Positions 30,837 through 59,336 of a DNA stretch of 64,000 bases are shown here, one piece after another. Made by a program: the position numbers and the translations under genes. Source of the DNA: Bdellovibrionota bacterium (lineage in GTDB: Bacteria > Bdellovibrionota_C > UBA2361 > OMII01); the NCBI GenBank assembly GCA_044360195.1, contig JBIKKT010000011.1:7567-71566 (forward strand), given 5' to 3'. How positions within the stretch are numbered: position 1 is the stretch's first letter; every line of letters starts with the position of its first letter. Below the pieces are notes generated by a model, which was given only the letters and a program-made list of their open reading frames with translations, made no database searches and had not been told where the DNA came from.

Positions 30837-32213
30837 ATGATGGATATTCGTTCCCCGCTCGATAGCCTCACCGTGCGTCTTTTGGCTCTGGTGTTTCTGT
30901 GTTCAGTGCCCCTTGCGGTTGTTGCTCTGATTTACGCCGATGCATCGCAAGGTGGTTTCGTTGCGGTGTTGGTGTGTATCGCTGTTGCCGTTGCGGGAAG
31001 CTTGCTGGTTGCGCGTGGTCTGGCGAGCTCACTTGATCGTTTTGCCCGTTTTTGCGAGCGCTTGGCAGCGGGGCATCTTGGAGCGCGAGTTTATCCATCA
31101 CGTATTCTGCAGCTCGGCCGTTTGGCACATGCTCTCAACGCGATGGCGCGCAGCTTGGCTGAGCGTATGGATGCACTTGCTGAGATATCAAGTGAGCAAG
31201 ATGCGATTCTCCGAAGCATGGTCGAGGGAGTTATTACCATCAACCGTGATGGGAAAATTCAACGGGTAAATAAAGCGGCATGCTCGCTGCTCTCAATAGA
31301 CGAAGAGTCATCTAAAGGAAGGCTCGTCAGCGATGTTATCCATCACATAGAACTGCAACGTTTTATAGAGACCGCGCTCTCATCGCAAGAAACACGCTCC
31401 GATGTTGTTACCGTAGTTGGCGATGACGAACGCGTGTTTGGAGCAAACTCATCGGCGTTGTTGACCGAGCAGGGAGTTTTCGTCGGAACGCTCGTGGTGT
31501 TGCATGACATCACTCGTATTCAGAAGCTAGAGAAGATCCGCAAAGATTTCGTTGCTAATGTGTCGCATGAGTTGCGTACGCCGATCACTTCCATCAAGGG
31601 ATTTGTTGAAACTCTGCTTGATGGAGCGATGCATGATCCTGAGAGCCTGCAGAAGTTCTTGGGTATCATCGGGCGTCATTCAGAGCGTCTTAATGCGATC
31701 TTGAGCGACCTGCTAATGTTGGCCCGGCTTGAGGTAAGTGGAGAGAATCAAATTGAGGTTGCATCCTTAAAATTACGCGATATAGCTCAGGACGCTTTTG
31801 AAACGTGTTCCAGTAAGGCTGATTCGAAGGGCATCTCTGTTAGTGTTGATGTGTCTGAGAACGAGCGCATCATGGGTAATGCTAGTCTGGTTGAGCAGGC
31901 GCTCGTTAATTTAATTGATAATGCGATCAAATACTCTGATAGTGGCGACCGTGTGCTGGTGCGTTGTGAGACTGCAGATGAGATGTGTCGCGTGATGGTC
32001 ACAGATAGCGGACCAGGTATCGATAAATCGCACCTCTCGCGACTCTTTGAACGGTTCTATCGAATTGACCAGGGCCGCAGTCGCCAGATGGGAGGAACGG
32101 GGCTAGGCTTAGCTATAGTAAAGCACATCGTTCAGCTTCATGGTGGACGGATAGAGGTTGAGAGTACGCTGGGGGAGGGCTCGACCTTCTCGATGTATTT
32201 TAAGAGGGGTTAG
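30837..32213 (+). CDS. Sensor histidine kinase (PhoR-like: 2 TM, PAS, HisKA, HATPase)
   Basis: H-box 'VSHELRTPITSIKGF', N-box 'NLIDNAIKYS', G-boxes 'DSGPGI' and 'GGTGLGLAIVK'. Confidence 0.85.
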   Translation: MMDIRSPLDSLTVRLLALVFLCSVPLAVVALIYADASQGGFVAVLVCIAVAVAGSLLVARGLASSLDRFARFCERLAAGHLGARVYPSRILQLGRLAHALNAMARSLAERMDALAEISSEQDAILRSMVEGVITINRDGKIQRVNKAACSLLSIDEESSKGRLVSDVIHHIELQRFIETALSSQETRSDVVTVVGDDERVFGANSSALLTEQGVFVGTLVVLHDITRIQKLEKIRKDFVANVSHELRTPITSIKGFVETLLDGAMHDPESLQKFLGIIGRHSERLNAILSDLLMLARLEVSGENQIEVASLKLRDIAQDAFETCSSKADSKGISVSVDVSENERIMGNASLVEQALVNLIDNAIKYSDSGDRVLVRCETADEMCRVMVTDSGPGIDKSHLSRLFERFYRIDQGRSRQMGGTGLGLAIVKHIVQLHGGRIEVESTLGEGSTFSMYFKRG

Positions 32214-32230
32214 GTGCGTTATAGTACTTT

Positions 32231-32340
32231 TTAGCCGTTTAGCCGTTACTACACCCCCCCCGCCGTTGCTCCAAGGCAACATTGCCTTTAGCCGTTACTA
32301 CACCCCCCCCGCCGTTGCTCCAAGGCAACATTGCCTTACT
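32231..32340. repeat. Tandem ~49-50 bp repeat (2 copies plus a partial) carrying a C8 run and a 'gttgctccaaggcaac' mini-hairpin. Left REP-like cluster of the RAYT module.
   Basis: 'tagccgttactacaccccccccgccgttgctccaaggcaacattgccttt' x2 (32240..32289, 32290..32338), followed by a 7-bp-stem hairpin 'actttaa accgg ttaaagt'. Confidence 0.7.
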
Positions 32341-32422
32341 TTAAACCGGTTAAAGTAATGGCGGCTAACGGACTGATATTTGGAAGAGGATTAATTCTCC
32401 CGTTTCACGTATACTGCCCCTT

Positions 32423-33496
32423 ATGGAGATGTTGGGGATAAATAGACCGTTCTTAGTTAGGAGTGCTAGTTCGGTTGATGCAATCAAGCTGGGCTCTGAC
32501 AGTGGAGCTGATTGGCCAGCGGTAGGGCGCAATCTAATGCCGTGTTTCAACAGCGCACCTATCAGACTTTTCCCCGAAACTCATTCACCAACTGTCGAAG
32601 AGCTTCAGCGCCAGTTTCCAGACGCCCGCCGTATCTTCGCAGCAGATTTCTATCTGAGAGGAATTGAGAAGGCGGGGAAGTTGCTTCCGTGTGGGGCGGG
32701 ATATGAGCTTAGTGGGGGGGTGTTTAACATCGACCACCACGCGCCAGGAGAGCTCTGGGAGCGGCACGTATCCACAGGTGTTCTGGCTTGTCAGTGGGTT
32801 AGAAAAGAGGGAGTCATTGCAGCAAAAAATGGCGATATCGTAGTCATAAATCATACCGACTGCGACAGTGTTCTCTCGGCGCTGATTCTGACCGGGGTTT
32901 TACCGGTACATGAGCGATTTGAGCAGGCTGTTCTTGATGCTGATCATCGCGGTACACCAAATGAAATCGCAGATATGCTGCAGGCCTGTAAATCTTTGCG
33001 AAATCTTCCGCTCATGGCGGAAGCGCTTTCCTGCTACTTGCAAGGCGAGGCTCTTCCCGAGGTGGTTCGAAATCAGGTCGAGCAATTGCACGAGAGTCGT
33101 TTGGTAGTGAAGCAATTAGTTGACAGGGGCAAATACCAAGAGCGAAATGGAGTGGTATTGATTAAATGCGATCGCTACTTTGAGAGCGATCTGTTTCTTA
33201 ATCATTTTCCAGATGCGCGTGTGTTAGTGGTGGAGTGTCCCTCTGAGAAGTCTCCCAGCGTAATGATAACAAGGTTGCGGCTCGGGGCGTGTATAGAGAG
33301 TGGTTTAAGTCTGCATAGGCTTGGACTTACCGACATAGATCCCCATTTTGGCGGAAGATTTAATGCAGGTTCGAATAAGCGGGGGCTTGAGGCGGCTATT
33401 GTCATGGGACAGGCCCCAAGAGTTGTTTCCTCGCAGCAGTACTTTGAGAACCTCGCTAACAAGCTCGTCCAAGCCCCCGCTGTTGCTCCAAGGTAA
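32423..33496 (+). CDS. Hypothetical protein with DHH-phosphoesterase-like motifs. Its 3' end is formed by a REP-like repeat copy.
   Basis: 'VINHTDCDSVLSALIL' resembles DHH motif I (HxxxDxDxxxSAxxL), and 'FNIDHHAPGE' contains DHH. The last codons '...APAVAPR*' are encoded by 'cccccgctgttgctccaaggtaa'. Confidence 0.35.
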   Translation: MEMLGINRPFLVRSASSVDAIKLGSDSGADWPAVGRNLMPCFNSAPIRLFPETHSPTVEELQRQFPDARRIFAADFYLRGIEKAGKLLPCGAGYELSGGVFNIDHHAPGELWERHVSTGVLACQWVRKEGVIAAKNGDIVVINHTDCDSVLSALILTGVLPVHERFEQAVLDADHRGTPNEIADMLQACKSLRNLPLMAEALSCYLQGEALPEVVRNQVEQLHESRLVVKQLVDRGKYQERNGVVLIKCDRYFESDLFLNHFPDARVLVVECPSEKSPSVMITRLRLGACIESGLSLHRLGLTDIDPHFGGRFNAGSNKRGLEAAIVMGQAPRVVSSQQYFENLANKLVQAPAVAPR

Positions 33497-33683
33497 CATG
33501 AGCTTACTTTAAATGTGTTAAAGTAAGCTAAGCTAACAAATTGATATTGCAGAATCGGCGAACTACCGCACCTTAGCTGCTTCGGGGGGTGGGTGTTTAA
33601 ATGTGTTAAAGTAAGCTAAGCTAACAAATTGATATTGCAGAATCGGCGAACTACCGCACCTTAGCTGCTTCGGGGGGTGGGTG
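33474..33683. repeat. Middle REP-like copy (33474..33507, direct orientation) followed by a perfect 2 x 88 bp tandem duplication (33508..33595, 33596..33683)
   Basis: 'cccccgctgttgctccaaggtaacatgagcttacttt' is homologous to 32255..32345. The unit 'tttaaatgtgttaaagtaagctaagctaacaaattgatattgcagaatcggcgaactaccgcaccttagctgcttcggggggtgggtg' is repeated identically. Confidence 0.75.
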
Positions 33684-33888
33684 TTTCGGACAGCTTTTTC
33701 TACCCGTTGTTCCTTTGTAATCGTCACCTCAAACAACTTTCCCTTCCTAAGTTCGATTAAATCAGTATGGCTCTCCAGGTCTTCATATCATCTCGTTCCT
33801 CTCTTAAGAGGCTTAAGGCCTCTTGATAGGTTGTTCAGGGATAGCAGTGGGTACTTGGAGGGACCGCCAGCACCAATTTTAATTTTTA

Positions 33889-34908
33889 TTGAGCTTCGAG
33901 ATTATGGGCTATACAGCACGATACTATGAGTCACGCAAACTCTACGCGATGACGTTCCGTACACTAGAGGGGCTGCCTTTTGTAGCCACTCGATATATGA
34001 AGCTTCTCATTTATGGTATCATCGCACGCGCTCAACGAGATTCAAAGATTACCCTGTGCCACTTCCTATGGATGGGGAATCATGCGCACATGATAGCAAT
34101 TTTTCAAGACGCCAATCAGGCTGTAAACTTCTACGCCGAAGTTCAAAAAAAGATTACGGAATCTCTAAAAGCGCTCCTTGGATTGCCACACCTGCGACTC
34201 TGGGGGGGGAGGCCAGTCGTTGCGCATATCGCGGATTTGCCCGCCGCCATTGAACAGATAGCATACTTGTATGCGAATCCGGCGAGAGCCAATCTTGTTG
34301 ATTCGATCTCTCACTATCCTGGATGTTCCTCGTGGGACCTCTTCCAGGAGACGCTAGCATCAGACCCTGATCAAGTTAGTGCTAAAGTTGAGTACCCAGC
34401 TTTGTGGATTCCGTACTCAAAGATTCCTCTATTGCCGACACAGGTCCTCAAGAAGCATGCTGATATCGACTTCGCTGATCGTTTGTCCCAGAAGGGAGTG
34501 CCTCATACACTTGAGCTTCATCCTAACGCTTGGATGAAATGTTTTGGTATTACATCCCCTGAGGACGTCGCTGATATTAACCAGAAGGTGCTGGCCTCCT
34601 TAGCCAAAAGGGAGCAAGAGGCAAGGGGGAAGCGAGTGGCAGAGGACAAAGGTGTTCTTGGTGAAAGACTCCTGAAGTTGCAACCGGTCACGCGCGCGCA
34701 TGTACCTAAAGACCGGGCGCGCCGCCGACGAGTGTTTGTCATTTGTTCGGATAGAGAAGAACGAATCCGTATTATCAGAAATGTAAAGGAACTTTGCCGT
34801 CTAGCACGCGAGTACTACTACGATGCTCTTAGGGGTATACTCCGCAACTGGCCGCCCGGAATGTTTAGGCCCCCGCTTAGGCCCCATGCGTCAGCCTTGG
34901 GGCGGTGA
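33889..34908 (+). CDS. IS200/IS605-family HuH tyrosine (Y1) transposase of the REP-associated (RAYT) type, with a ~190-aa C-terminal extension
   Basis: N-terminus 'ARYYESRKLYAMTFRT' vs E. coli RAYT 'RRYYIKGGTWFFTVNL'. HuH 'WMGNHAHMIAIF' vs 'LPEHMHCIWTL'. Catalytic Tyr motif 'IAYLYANPARANLVDSISHYPGCSSW' vs 'DYIYINPVKHGWVVRVKDWPFSTF'. Confidence 0.65.
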   Translation: MSFEIMGYTARYYESRKLYAMTFRTLEGLPFVATRYMKLLIYGIIARAQRDSKITLCHFLWMGNHAHMIAIFQDANQAVNFYAEVQKKITESLKALLGLPHLRLWGGRPVVAHIADLPAAIEQIAYLYANPARANLVDSISHYPGCSSWDLFQETLASDPDQVSAKVEYPALWIPYSKIPLLPTQVLKKHADIDFADRLSQKGVPHTLELHPNAWMKCFGITSPEDVADINQKVLASLAKREQEARGKRVAEDKGVLGERLLKLQPVTRAHVPKDRARRRRVFVICSDREERIRIIRNVKELCRLAREYYYDALRGILRNWPPGMFRPPLRPHASALGR

Positions 34909-35300
34909 TCTCCTGAGTGGCTATGCGGAAAGTGAGCGCATAAACGCGCTGCAATTGTAAGGAAATCGTAGGGACCATAAAGAAGCAGAGCTACTTCTGG
35001 GTATCACCACGCGGTAGCTTCCGAAAGTAGCTCATAAAATCAATTGATTAAGATAGTTGTAGACTATTTTTGTTGTTGTTGCGTTATCGCGAATGACTGG
35101 AGAATCCCGCCGGGATGGTGATGTAGGGCCCGAGCAGCGGCAGGCAAGCAGCAGACAAGGTTCGGCCTGAGCCTGTTGGGTTGGAGCAGCTCCATTCCCG
35201 GAGCCTGACAACGCCGCAATGTATCTAACTCGCAGGTCTGCTACGGCCACAAGAAGTGAAATAGGTTTAGGGTTAGCGTTGAAGCTAGTCCTAAAAGGCA

Positions 35301-35364
35301 TCTCCCCCTCTACAGCTCTGCAGCAGGGGGAGATTGCGGACTCTTTCCTTTAGGGAAAGAGTCC
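35301..35364 (-). terminator. Two consecutive perfect hairpins immediately 3' of the RRM gene (minus strand)
   Basis: 'ggactctttcc tttag ggaaagagtcc' (35338..35364, 11-bp stem) and 'tctccccct ...15 nt... agggggaga' (35301..35333). Confidence 0.45.
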
Positions 35365-35371
35365 TGGAACA

Positions 35372-35812
35372 TTAGTAACGACCGCCGCCGCCACCGCTGC
35401 CACCACGTCGGCCGCCACCGCTGCCGCCGCGACCGCCGCGATCTCCGCCACGACCACCGCCGTAGCCTCCGCCGCCGCCACTGTATCCGCCGCCGCCGCC
35501 TCCGCCGCCGCCAAAGCCGCGACCGCCGCCGCCGCTGCGTCGATCACCGCCACCGGGACGGTCTTCTTTTGGTCGGGCCTCATTTACTGTCAAGGCGCGT
35601 CCACCGACCTCACTGCCATTGAGGGCCGATATAGCTGCTTGAGCCTCTTCATCGGTGCCCATCTCTACAAAGCCAAATCCCTTGGATCGCCCCGTATCTC
35701 GGTCCATGACGACCTTCGCAGATGATACGGTGCCGTACTGTGCGAAAAGTTGTTGAAGATCGCGATCCTGAATTTCGTAGGAAAGGTTTCCTACATATAA
35801 TTTATTTCCCAT
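35372..35812 (-). CDS. RRM-type RNA-binding protein with a Gly/Arg-rich C-terminal tail
   Basis: RNP2 'KLYVGNL', RNP1 'KGFGFVEM'. The tail is '(GGGGR/GY)n', encoded by GGC/GCC-rich low-complexity DNA at 35380..35590. Confidence 0.85.
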   Translation of the reverse strand: MGNKLYVGNLSYEIQDRDLQQLFAQYGTVSSAKVVMDRDTGRSKGFGFVEMGTDEEAQAAISALNGSEVGGRALTVNEARPKEDRPGGGDRRSGGGGRGFGGGGGGGGGYSGGGGGYGGGRGGDRGGRGGSGGGRRGGSGGGGGRY

Positions 35813-35958
35813 ATGTTTCCTTAAAGGACCGCTCCAGCTTCCATTAGCTTAGTAAAGGGCCCACCCCCCTAACTTCCCACGAGAGGAGGTTTTCGTCGAG
35901 TTCAAAGGTAAGTTTTATGTGAGATAGCGCATAGGACAGCTATCTTTTTTGCAAAAGG

Positions 35959-36004
35959 TTGCCTTGGAGCAAGGTGGGGGGTTGCCTTGGAGCAAGGTGG
36001 GGGG
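35959..36004. repeat. Right REP-like cluster, 2 x 23 bp, in inverted orientation relative to 32231..32340
   Basis: 'ttgccttggagcaaggtgggggg' x2. Its reverse complement 'ccccccaccttgctccaaggcaa' matches the left repeat core. Confidence 0.65.
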
Positions 36005-36034
36005 TGGCTCTGGAGGTACGCAAGTGGTTGATAT

Positions 36035-36652
36035 GTGGTGCCTCTGTCACCATTTGGCGCCCTGAAAGTAAACCGGTACCGAACAGGGCTTTTAGGTGAT
36101 ATCGTCCCGCGCATGAGATTTTTAATCGCAAACGCCCTTCCTCTTATCGCCCCACGACGCATGCTCGCTGGCGTGCTCTTTGCCCTGGTGGCTAGTTTCG
36201 CGCAGCCTGCGCTGGCAGAAAAAACCAAGCCGCCACTTCAGCTCGGTACCTCAACGGGACATGTTTTAACCGCCTGGGGTGAGCCGGTTGAGAGGATTGA
36301 GCGCGCGCTCAAGCAGGAGGTGGTATGGAGCTATCCGCAAGGGGCCTTTGTAACCTTTAAAAAAGGGCAGGTGATCTCCTACCAGATAGCCGGCAGCCAA
36401 GTAGTCGACGCAAAATCGCAAGCAAGGCAGGTTGCTGCTCAGCAGACCGTAGCGGCAGCTCCGACCGAGGCTATCGCAGGGGCTACTCGCGACCTAGTGC
36501 GCGACATTGCTAAAGAGCTGCCATCAAGTCCAGATGCACCATACACGGAGCCTCCCTCACAGCCAGGGCGCGCGGCTGCACGTAATCAGCCGCCGCAGCC
36601 GCCAGCGATGATACCTGGTGATGCTGAGGCTGATGTAGAGGAAGACGGCTAG
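36035..36652 (+). CDS. Secreted protein with a BamE (SmpA/OmlA)-like domain and a Pro/Ala-rich acidic tail. The likely start is 'MRFLIAN' at 36113.
   Basis: Signal peptide 'LAGVLFALVASFAQPALA'. 'LQLGTSTGHVLTAWGEPVERIE...VVWSYPQGAFVTFKKGQVISYQ' follows the BamE pattern (L.G.T...V....G.P......W.Y......V.F..G.V). Confidence 0.35.
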   Translation: MVPLSPFGALKVNRYRTGLLGDIVPRMRFLIANALPLIAPRRMLAGVLFALVASFAQPALAEKTKPPLQLGTSTGHVLTAWGEPVERIERALKQEVVWSYPQGAFVTFKKGQVISYQIAGSQVVDAKSQARQVAAQQTVAAAPTEAIAGATRDLVRDIAKELPSSPDAPYTEPPSQPGRAAARNQPPQPPAMIPGDAEADVEEDG

Positions 36653-58016: not shown

Positions 58017-59336
58017 GTGTTGACGGTTGAAAAGAGTGCTCGGCAACTAAAAGTCATAATCTTACTTGCACTAGCTTTATCTCTGGGAGGATTCGCTCTC
58101 TCAGTTGTTGCATTGCAGCAACACGTCCTCCTTACCAACAATTTAAGCACAGGGCCCAGTTTTTGTACCCTTTCTGACACCATTAACTGCGATGCTGTAA
58201 ATGCGAGTGAGTGGTCGTCTATTTTAGGTATCCCGATAGCCTCGTACGGGATGTTCTTTTACCTGGTACTTATCGGGGGAGCGCTTTCGGCGCTCATTAT
58301 GCGTGTGTTTCCACCGCAGGCGTTTGCAGCGCTTGCTCTGCTACTCAGCGTCGCGGCTAATCTCGGGACGCTTTATCTCTTTCCTCTGTCGTGGTTTGTG
58401 ATCGGCGCACTGTGCCTGATATGTATAGGGCTTTACGTCATAAACTTCATCCTTCTCATTCTTTTGTGGCGCGGTGTTTTTCCGGGTCGAATGAAGGCTG
58501 CTCTTACCGAAGCGGTACACCTCATCGGAACATTTACTAGAGTTGTTGTTCGAGGTGGGATGTCCGGCTCAAGTTGGGCGGCTCGCATTATCGCCGTTGG
58601 TCTCGTGCTGCTGGCGTATTGGAATGTGGTCGCACCTGAAGTGTTGTTGGCTTACTACAAAGAGAAGCGCGCTCACCAGAATATTGTAACTCATGCGGCT
58701 GCGCTTCAGGCGTGGGAAGCAGCACCGGTGGTAGCAACCGGTGTGCGACTGGATGATGGAGTGTTCGGTGACTACTGGCAGGGACGACACGATGCTCCCA
58801 TACGAATCGTTGAATTCGCGGATTACGGTTGTGGGGCATGCCGAATAATGTCTGGTGTTCTGCACGAGCTTCTTGCTCGATACGAGGGTAAGTACCTCTA
58901 CGTTTTCCGAGATTATCCACTCGATAGCGCCTGCAATCCCTCTATCTCTCAACCGTTTCACCAATTCTCGTGTCTAGCAACGTATACAGCACGGTGCGCG
59001 GGAGAGCAGGGGAAGTTTTGGGAGGTTAATAACTTTCTCTTCTCGGCTGAGGAGCTAGAAAGCGAGGAGTCGATTGAGAAAGTCCAGCCGGCTTTGCTTG
59101 AGCGTGCTGCGCGCCAGATTGGCCTTGATCCAGAGGCCTTAAAGGAGTGTGTGGCCTCAAAGAGGTATCTCTCGGCGGTTCACCGTGATGTGCAAGATGG
59201 TAATGCGCTTGAGTTGCAGGGGACTCCATCATTCTGGATCAACGATAAGAAATTATCCTCTTTTGCTCCTGAGGTGCTAGAGGCGGTGTTTGAGCGGATC
59301 CTAAAAGAGAGTGATAGTAACGCTAGCGCCCGCTGA
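58017..59336 (+). CDS. Bacterial vitamin-K epoxide reductase (VKOR) homolog fused to a DsbA-like thioredoxin domain
   Basis: VKOR loop cysteines 'FCTLSDTINCDAV', TM CxxC 'GALCLICIG'. C-terminal thioredoxin 'EFADYGCGACRIM'. Confidence 0.7.
   Translation: MLTVEKSARQLKVIILLALALSLGGFALSVVALQQHVLLTNNLSTGPSFCTLSDTINCDAVNASEWSSILGIPIASYGMFFYLVLIGGALSALIMRVFPPQAFAALALLLSVAANLGTLYLFPLSWFVIGALCLICIGLYVINFILLILLWRGVFPGRMKAALTEAVHLIGTFTRVVVRGGMSGSSWAARIIAVGLVLLAYWNVVAPEVLLAYYKEKRAHQNIVTHAAALQAWEAAPVVATGVRLDDGVFGDYWQGRHDAPIRIVEFADYGCGACRIMSGVLHELLARYEGKYLYVFRDYPLDSACNPSISQPFHQFSCLATYTARCAGEQGKFWEVNNFLFSAEELESEESIEKVQPALLERAARQIGLDPEALKECVASKRYLSAVHRDVQDGNALELQGTPSFWINDKKLSSFAPEVLEAVFERILKESDSNASAR

Follow-up and report, generated by a model that had tools for sequence, protein, structure and literature searches.

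The 64,000-nt stretch of the Bdellovibrionota contig JBIKKT010000011.1 analysed here in full (the window) contains, between a histidine kinase (HK) gene and a gene for an RRM protein, a gene whose product resembles the REP-associated tyrosine transposases (RAYTs; REP, repetitive extragenic palindromic), together with several copies of a short motif adjoining runs of C or G. A preliminary description of this DNA had taken the ensemble for a REP/RAYT-like module. The order along the window is response regulator, kinase, LE'LE', DHH-like gene, LE, RAYT-like gene, RE, RRM gene (opposite strand), RE''RE'' and the next gene, where LE and RE denote the left and right end modules of the RAYT-like unit, and LE' and RE'' the outer satellite copies. 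The features of the locus are as follows.

32238..32335, + strand: LE' satellite array of two perfect 49-nt units, each a C8 run plus the motif TTGCTCCAAGGCAAC (32266-32280 and 32315-32329), intergenic, between the HK gene and the DHH-like gene
32333..32362, + strand: hairpin after LE', GCCTTACTTTAA-ACCGG-TTAAAGTAA.GGC, DNA dG -8.0 kcal/mol, z -4.4
32423..33496, + strand: DHH-like open reading frame (ORF), 357 aa, a neighbour gene outside the unit, with a direct LE module on either side; the LE motif supplies its last codons and stop codon
33474..33497, + strand: LE, left boundary module of the RAYT-like unit, made up of a C5 run and the motif TTGCTCCAAGGTAAC (33483-33497)
33501..33529, + strand: LE hairpin, AGCTTACTTTAA-ATGTG-TTAAAGTAAGCT, 12-bp stem, dG -10.2 kcal/mol, z -7.8
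33508..33683, + strand: perfect 88-nt tandem duplication, starting at the foot of the hairpin core
33735..33760, + strand: AACTTT-N12-TCGATTAA, a putative promoter by its likeness to alternative-sigma promoters
33904..34908, + strand: RAYT/TIRYT-like class-2 Y1 HUH gene, 334 aa
35174..35189, - strand: RE, inverted motif copy, TGTTGGGTTGGAGCAG on the + strand and CTGCTCCAACCCAACA on the - strand, 266 nt 3' of the stop codon
33498..35255, no strand: variable segment, present in the window and in the related contigs L050/L051, absent from L047/L052/L053, right edge +/-15 nt
35957..36002, - strand: RE'' satellite array upstream of the RRM gene, two perfect 23-nt units (GGTTGCCTTGGAGCAAGGTGGGG)

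Profile comparisons and a predicted structure confirm the central ORF as a putative class-2 HUH/Y1 (TnpAY1) enzyme of the TnpA-REP/RAYT-like type. The preliminary description gave it as 339 aa (33889..34908); the ORF exists, but homologues start at the ATG at 33904 (MGYTARYY...), which yields a protein of 334 aa, whose N-terminal ~145 aa form the catalytic core and whose remaining ~190 aa form a C-terminal region specific to the family. Residues 10-144 align with positions 3-144 of the 146 in the NCBIfam model REP_Tyr_transpos at E 8e-9, with a score of 35.5 bits that lies under the family cutoff of 80. A profile built from 40 homologues matches Escherichia coli TnpA-REP (PDB 4er8) at E 2.7e-6, with NHAH aligned to the HuH motif and YLYANP to YIYINP. 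The AlphaFold (AF2) model (mean pLDDT 91.3, pTM 0.88) returned the same structure, 4er8_A, as its top Foldseek match in the PDB (E 1.6e-5, target TM 0.74), followed by the TnpA proteins of ISDra2, IS608 and IS200 at probability ~1. On careful alignment of the 40 homologues, the HuH and tyrosine residues named at the outset are borne out: H60 and H62 of NHAH and Y121, N125 and P126 of YLYANP are invariant, the YPGxSSW stretch after the tyrosine motif is well conserved, and the W100-E motif matches the W[EQ] of class 2 TnpAY1. The Y---NP, NHxH, WE and 'SS' features place the protein in class 2 of the scheme of Quentin et al. (PMC6006769), although its length, NHAH motif and lack of a Pfam helix-turn-helix (HTH) tail give a clean fit to no described subclass; alanine is not among the hydrophobic HuH residues listed for class 2 (PMC6006769, Table 1). 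Pfam gave no match on the ORF, and only 5 of the 40 family members reach Y1_Tnp (best E 2.5e-4). Neither the ORF (E up to 10) nor the 40 members (E up to 0.01) matched Bac_DnaA_C, HTH_23 or HTH_28 in Pfam; a divergent HTH may nevertheless be present. The C-terminal ~190 aa found no confident counterpart when the full model was compared with the PDB by Foldseek, and a single-sequence phmmer search of PDB sequences gave no meaningful match.

The family to which this protein belongs comprises 379 clusters at 50% identity (E up to 1e-30) among 1.84 billion representatives. Most members are unannotated, a few JGI entries being named 'REP element-mobilizing transposase RayT'. The carriers are mostly metagenome-assembled genomes (MAGs) labelled Bdellovibrionota or Oligoflexia; the closest relatives come from lake metagenomes, and the top match in the genome collection, which lacks the window's own genome, stands at 80%. 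Five MAGs each hold 2-4 family copies with a within-genome identity of 34-88%, including clusters at 81-88% in 6_bin.32 and at 87% in CAZKXU. The similarity between the 6_bin.32 paralogues stops ~145 bp 5' and ~195 bp 3' of the gene, near LE/RE, which points to occasional duplication of the whole unit rather than to a recent burst.

The motif itself is 15 nt long, TTGCTCCAAGG(C/T)AAC, and its five copies in the 64 kb all lie at the sites and in the orientations originally given. A scan of the window with TTGCTCCAAGGCAA at up to 2 mismatches returned 6 matches against 0.5 expected, and none of 100 shuffles gave 6. The five copies start at 32266, 32315 and 33483 (one mismatch) on the + strand and at 35959 and 35982 on the - strand, whereas the sixth match, at position 58108 with 2 mismatches, is probably due to chance. 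A C-run precedes each of the five, as had been stated, with a length of 5-8 bases instead of 6-8. The RE'' units are exact complements of the LE' motif, each then followed by a G-run, and a degenerate third unit extends to ~36020.

Both sites of tandem copies prove to be perfect duplications, 49 nt x2 at 32238-32335 and 23 nt x2 at 35957-36002, and a further perfect duplication that had escaped the preliminary description, 88 nt x2, occupies 33508-33683. In addition, the DHH-like ORF is flanked by a direct repeat of 75 nt, 79% identical (32306-32380 and 33474-33548), which spans the motif, the hairpin and the next bases; apart from the motif, tandem and 75-nt repeats, a survey of the whole window found no notable repeats. 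An 8-nt tandem (TTTAGCCG x2) is seen at 32231-32246, just before the 49-nt duplication. The junctions of the 49-, 88- and 23-nt duplications each show 2-3 nt of microhomology, so that replication slippage is as possible an origin as enzyme action. Assembly errors can create perfect tandem repeats, and the repeats seen here are where several contigs break off; the probability that they are a local duplication or an assembly artefact without biological meaning is nevertheless negligible. JGI contigs assembled from other samples reproduce the region, all three duplications included, at 100% identity, which makes a single-assembly artefact unlikely, and homologous loci of many unrelated MAGs carry the motif as well.

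About 30 homologous loci from Bdellovibrionota MAGs were compared, and nearly every family member examined is flanked by inverted motif copies. The usual geometry is a gene of ~330 aa with a C-run and a 15-nt motif 100-375 bp upstream and an inverted copy ~180-440 bp past the stop codon; over all loci LE spans -96 to -421, and RE falls mostly at ~+180 to +300, its array copies reaching +440. Homologous loci at 67-80% protein identity occupy unrelated gene neighbourhoods, and by BLAST the close loci conserve only the gene and one short 3' block, which is the RE. Upstream of the close loci, TTGCTCCAAGGCAAC or a near variant lies at -248 to -374 and is followed, after exactly 10 nt, by TTTAA-N5-TTAAA, a spacing that is fixed in 8 LE modules (two in the window and six at related loci); downstream, 1-6 inverted motif copies TGTTGGGTTGGAGCA lie at +245 to +440. 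The RE of the window (35174-35189) is an inverted match at 13/15 positions that the preliminary description overlooked: the bracketing of the gene by the outer LE'/RE'' pair stands as first seen, but the proximal right partner had been missed. The distance from LE to the ATG in the window, minus the 88-nt duplication, is ~332 nt, and is thus in agreement with the 334-350 nt of the orthologues once that duplication is set aside.

Where the motif changes, it changes at both ends. In L011, LE reads CTGCTCCAACGCACC and RE GGTGCGTTGGAGCAA, both altered jointly, and distant members (~40% identity) carry other motifs, e.g., CTGGTACAACCCAAC, CTGGTGCGTCCCAAC and CTGGTGGGTGCCAAC, each matching between its own two ends; in these, too, a C-run with the motif lies upstream, at ~-100 to -300, and the inverted copy, in many cases with a G-run after it, lies at ~+180 to +300. 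The motif skeleton common to the family is YTGSTNC...YAAC. In an orientation test on 23 loci, core hexamers of the motif were found upstream 41 times forward vs 6 reverse and downstream 37 times reverse vs 12 forward, with a background of 0.93/kb. LE and RE are complementary at 13-14/15 positions and change together from locus to locus (in L011, for instance, by a double change of A-U to C-G), as would also be seen if they paired within a long transcript to form a 5'-3' panhandle controlling the stability or translation of the gene's mRNA. We regard such a panhandle as highly improbable, because the co-variation is equally expected of inverted repeats recognised by one protein, the tandem arrays and solo copies would go unexplained, and the region from the stop codon to RE shows no folding excess over shuffles on either strand (z -0.6 and -0.1). 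By eye, moreover, a hairpin and T-rich run precede RE at ~35052-35085, though the consensus terminator scan did not list them.

The ends of the family are often tandem arrays, with 2-6 RE units in L010 and L011. The largest LE array was observed directly 5' of the family gene at L016:2720-2930, where 11 tandem units of ~17 nt (CCCCACGAACTGGTGCC, some with AGGCAAGT) follow one another. Copies distant from the gene were seen only in the window (1.0-1.6 kb) and in L018, from the complete genome CP129486.1, in which two extra motif copies of the same orientation lie 2.3-2.4 kb from the gene, past an ABC transporter gene. Partial duplications are also present: at L022:2838-2900 the first ~30 nt of the family gene and LE are repeated upstream, and at L030:2675-2824 a 150-nt copy of the gene's 3' end sits upstream of the gene, both of which show signs of local rearrangement at the ends.

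The two hairpins that follow the direct motif copies of the window are real, but the stems of 7 bp first assigned to them are longer, 9-12 bp, and the 'compensatory loop changes' between them are a misnomer, since the loop bases are unpaired. The AT core of the hairpin, TTTAA-N5-TTAAA, is invariant in the close subfamily. Its 6th pair is C-G in both window hairpins, in L047 and in L011, G-C in L009 and L014, and G-G in L010 and L012, and support for the LE hairpin across orthologues is moderate. The imperfect 4-5 bp palindrome described within the motif does not hold, as it is unconserved and the motifs of relatives such as CTGGTACAACCCAAC are non-palindromic; a linear recognition sequence is therefore the best reading of the motif. 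Neither in the window nor at related loci does a GTAG adjoin the motif or the hairpin. Thus, of the inverted REP pairs said to flank the gene, the inverted motif flanks are upheld family-wide, whereas an assignment to REP or bacterial interspersed mosaic elements (BIMEs) is unsupported, given the missing GTAG and the unconserved palindrome. C-runs (at LE) and G-runs (at RE) adjoin the motif, and GGGGWSAS is not recognised as such; some described TIRYTs are without GGGGWSAS. Rfam gave no match (whole window at gathering thresholds; 32100-36200 at E up to 1), a tRNA scan found none, and a sigma-70 promoter and terminator scan was uninformative. A metagenome scan for CCCCNNNNTTGCTCCAAGGYAAC, in a collection that does not contain the window's organism, returned 7 single chance-like matches with no RAYT-like gene or hairpin nearby.

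Between LE and the gene, AACTTT recurs upstream of 17/27 family genes, most of the 17 carrying AACTTT-N(12-14)-CGA(T/C). The element, seen in the window at 33735-33760 and also in L009-L015, L023-L026, L034 and L050, has a sigma-28 or extracytoplasmic-function (ECF)-type likeness, which hints that the RAYT-like enzyme may be expressed under an alternative sigma factor.

Comparison of three layout types, whose DNA is 79-82% identical across shared genes, shows the RAYT-like unit to be present or absent at the locus. In L047, L052 and L053 the order is kinase, LE', DHH-like gene, ~125 bp, RRM gene, RE'' and next gene, with no RAYT-like gene. In L050 and L051, kinase is followed by LE, a RAYT-like gene (80% identical), two RE copies and the RRM gene; the DHH-like gene is absent from the locus, where the RAYT-like gene comes immediately after the kinase gene. 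The segment that L047/L052/L053 lack measures ~1.76 kb (33498 to ~35255), and its left edge falls at ~33498-33500, directly after the LE motif; a degenerate C-run and motif persist at the 3' end of the DHH-like ORF in genomes of this type. One LE' copy is present at the orthologous site in L047, L052 and L053, and a single RE'' copy (GTTGCCTTGGGGCAA plus a G-run) at the orthologous site in L052/L053, so that genomes without a local RAYT-like gene retain the solo LE' and RE'', each as a single copy, where the window has them. The window is slightly nearer the L047/L052/L053 type than the L050/L051 type, which makes loss of the RAYT unit in the former more parsimonious than two gains. A window-like ancestor and two deletions, one from LE' to LE and one starting at LE, would explain all three layouts, with the polarity taken from three taxa.

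These layouts bear on what the neighbouring genes are. The preliminary description regarded the DHH-motif and RRM genes as cargo of the module, a claim that does not survive the comparison: in relatives the two are adjacent without any RAYT-like gene, which marks them as ordinary chromosomal neighbours rather than demonstrated cargo, and the DHH-like family spans many phyla, including archaea and CPR bacteria. In the more distant Bdellovibrionota-like contigs L048 and L049, a DHH-like orthologue stands without the motif or a RAYT-like neighbour. We likewise rejected the DHH-like gene as a partner of the RAYT-like gene, on account of its many phyla and of L048/L049. A weaker form of the cargo idea survives, in that the DHH-like gene lies between two direct LE modules and is itself present or absent. 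Taken further, the LE modules could be Y1 recombination sites that excise or capture adjacent host genes as cassettes, an HUH-based shuffling of chromosomal genes. Here the DHH-like gene would be one present-or-absent cassette between direct LE modules and the RAYT-like unit a second, with the conserved outer inverted pair LE'/RE'' enclosing the whole variable region; we consider this quite unlikely.

Also very unlikely, in our view, is that the motif is a cis-regulatory element common to the DHH-like, RAYT-like and RRM genes, either operator-like or promoter-proximal or bound by the C-terminal region acting as a regulator, with no DNA rearrangement involved. The C-run and motif do lie 110-420 nt upstream of all three genes in the same gene-relative orientation, the solo copies 5' of the DHH-like and RRM genes are kept in relatives without a local RAYT-like gene, and the promoter-like element between LE and the gene is conserved. 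A promoter model leaves unexplained, however, the family-wide inverted copy downstream (~+180 to +440), and DHH-like orthologues elsewhere lack the motif. The invariant HUH and tyrosine residues argue for a DNA-cleaving enzyme, and neither the mapped indel breakpoint beside the motif nor the present-or-absent DHH-like gene bounded by two LE modules speaks for regulation alone.

Presence and absence of the unit between syntenic genomes, together with the unrelated contexts of its closest homologues, is what an autonomous insertion sequence (IS) of a new type would produce. In that case, a 1.4-1.8 kb LE-gene-RE unit would transpose, the 15-nt motifs would be its terminal inverted repeats, and the solo copies would be remnants or targets. 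The 2-4 copies per MAG, clustering in some (6_bin.32 and CAZKXU), agree with this, as do the limits of paralogue similarity close to LE/RE and the many MAG contigs that break in or beside the gene. The identity of within-genome copies (34-88%) is nonetheless far from the ~99% of active IS200 (PMC6006769, Table 1), variable tandem arrays are unusual as IS terminal repeats, and there is no definable target-site signature. Three-genome parsimony favours loss of the unit over gain, with a degenerate LE left at the empty site. We therefore hold an autonomous IS to be unlikely.

The reading that we prefer, and consider probable though well short of certain, is that the locus is a RAYT/TIRYT-type unit, namely a gene for a class-2 HUH/Y1 predicted single-stranded DNA endonuclease-ligase with its cognate ends, which behaves as a slow-moving REPtron/TIRtron rather than as an active IS. 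On single-stranded DNA, the enzyme would recognise the LE hairpin and the motif arrays, the latter perhaps via its C-terminal region; Tyr121 would cleave, and rejoining would follow. At low frequency, DNA would be excised or deleted, end modules would be duplicated locally and the entire unit would now and then be copied to a new site, and such cleave-rejoin chemistry would account for both the 2-4 diverged paralogues per genome and the perfect tandem duplications. We infer from the sequence the binding of motif and LE hairpin, the cleavage by Tyr121 and the origin of the duplications and deletions in this activity. Both variable pieces adjoin LE, as the left edge of the RAYT unit follows the LE motif and the DHH-like gene lies between two LE modules. 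By analogy, the position of the left indel breakpoint a few nt 5' of the hairpin foot, where IS200/IS605 elements are cut, is at most suggestive.

Several observations weigh against a RAYT/TIRYT-type unit. The right edge of the RAYT-unit indel lies ~65 nt past RE and not at RE, and both indels could be ordinary deletions that end near repeats by chance. The ~60 kb of the window outside the locus hold zero dispersed motif copies, and no near-identical copies in different contexts, which would prove recent transposition, were found in the family. At several related loci the LE hairpin has little predicted stability (dG -1 to -4.7), support for it beyond the AT core is mixed, with a G-G mismatch in 2 loci, and a conserved hairpin was looked for at RE and not found. 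Finally, the solo motif copies are found 5' of genes and always in the same orientation, a pattern that fits a regulatory role too.

The closest published description of such a unit is that of the TIRtrons and TIRYTs, with which the locus shares a Y1 gene, non-GTAG inverted repeats at similar distances from the coding sequence, dimers or clusters, small families and several diverged copies per genome. Bdellovibrio-like bacteria were formerly classed in the delta-proteobacteria. TIRtrons are RAYT-like genes between non-GTAG inverted repeats at similar distances, sometimes in dimers or clusters and in modest families (Di Nocera et al. 2013, PMC3733652). Quentin et al. 2018 (PMC6006769) equated TIRYT with TnpAY1 subclass 2.1, which is prevalent in delta-proteobacteria, among other groups; the supplementary files of that paper do not mention Bdellovibrio-like taxa. 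The window family differs from TIRYT/subclass 2.1 in lacking a Pfam-detectable HTH tail and having instead the ~190-aa C-terminal region without a PDB match. Its protein is longer (334 aa, against a TIRYT median of 238) and has NHAH where TIRYT has NHVH or NH[YF]H, and its ends consist of a C/G-run plus YTGSTNC...YAAC, with GGGGWSAS unrecognised and an extra hairpin at LE.

With E. coli TnpA-REP (4er8; PMC3479197, PMC8266576), the best structural and profile match, the window protein shares NHxH, WE, Y---NP and the 'SS' tail (YPGxSSW in the window, WPFSS in TnpA-REP), and in both cases the gene is flanked by inverted repeats. Some REPtrons, e.g., those of Marinomonas, have REPs concentrated next to tnpA (PMC8266576). 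In contrast to TnpA-REP and the REPtrons, the window unit has neither a GTAG tag nor a conserved palindrome, and its protein is twice as long; RAYTs are typically single-copy, whereas the window family has 2-4 diverged copies per MAG, and the high-copy dispersed repeats of REPtrons are not seen for the window motif (0 in ~60 kb of window). The likeness to IS200/IS605 (the TnpA of IS608 and ISDra2) lies in the HUH/Y1 fold and in a hairpin just inside the left end. IS200/IS605 proteins, however, have Y---Q and ~150 aa, whereas the window protein has Y---NP and 334 aa, with no tnpB. The window unit has inverted end motifs and a hairpin at LE only, while IS200/IS605 elements have no inverted repeats and hairpins at both ends, and copies of the window family are 34-88% identical vs ~99% for IS200/IS605. 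TnpAY1 subclass 2.3 (Chromatiales/Alteromonadales; PMC6006769) resembles the family in its ~325 aa, long subclass-specific tail, ~4 copies/genome and ~75% identity. Its core, by contrast, is 172 aa with two insertions, whereas that of the window protein is colinear with the 146-position RAYT model; its HuH is NHYH and its Y motif YVDLNP, it belongs to another taxon, and no flanking repeats were reported there.

We also noted features of the neighbouring genes. The DHH-like ORF carries NIDHH and INHTDCDS motifs without a significant Pfam match, and its family is unannotated and conserved in Gemmatimonadota, Elusimicrobia, CPR bacteria and DPANN archaea. In the - strand leader of the RRM gene (window 35813-35908), ~100 nt 5' of the start codon are, by eye, identical to L052/L053, whereas the surroundings are just ~82-85% identical, and Rfam had no match; the sequence conservation suggests that the 5' leader of this glycine-rich RRM protein gene may be strongly constrained. 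L003, a contig assembled from a different sample, matches the window at 99.9% identity between 33710 and a point shortly beyond the start codon of the RRM gene, and L003:2115-2936, opposite window 35824 onward, is unrelated sequence found nowhere in the window. The cause is either a chimeric assembly or a strain-level rearrangement at the 5' end of the RRM gene. Downstream of the RRM stop codon are two adjacent G+C-rich hairpins (window 35296-35365; L047:5800-5885; L050:6410-6490). They look like bidirectional terminators between convergent genes, and their retention in three genomes with different stem sequences implies compensatory changes. The direct-repeat 'family' at window 35375-35551 is GGN/CGN codon repetition in the Gly/Arg-rich tail of the RRM protein and not a DNA element.

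RAYTs, TIRYTs and other domesticated Y1 enzymes are widespread, and the ways in which they move or shape DNA are poorly understood; to our knowledge, TIRYTs have never been studied biochemically. The RAYT-like family described here is probably a well-defined, undescribed subfamily of these enzymes. Judged by sequence, what is new relative to TIRYT is the ~190-aa C-terminal region, NHAH, the end motif and the putative LE hairpin. The family offers a comparative system that is small and lineage-restricted, with co-varying end motifs, variable arrays, natural variants and one breakpoint beside the motif. If it is just an old, decaying element, it would be a useful addition to TnpAY1 classification and nothing more. 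The perfect tandem duplications are a hint of possible continuing activity of the system in a lake population that has been sampled over many years, and in that event its activity could be traced in existing metagenomic time series.

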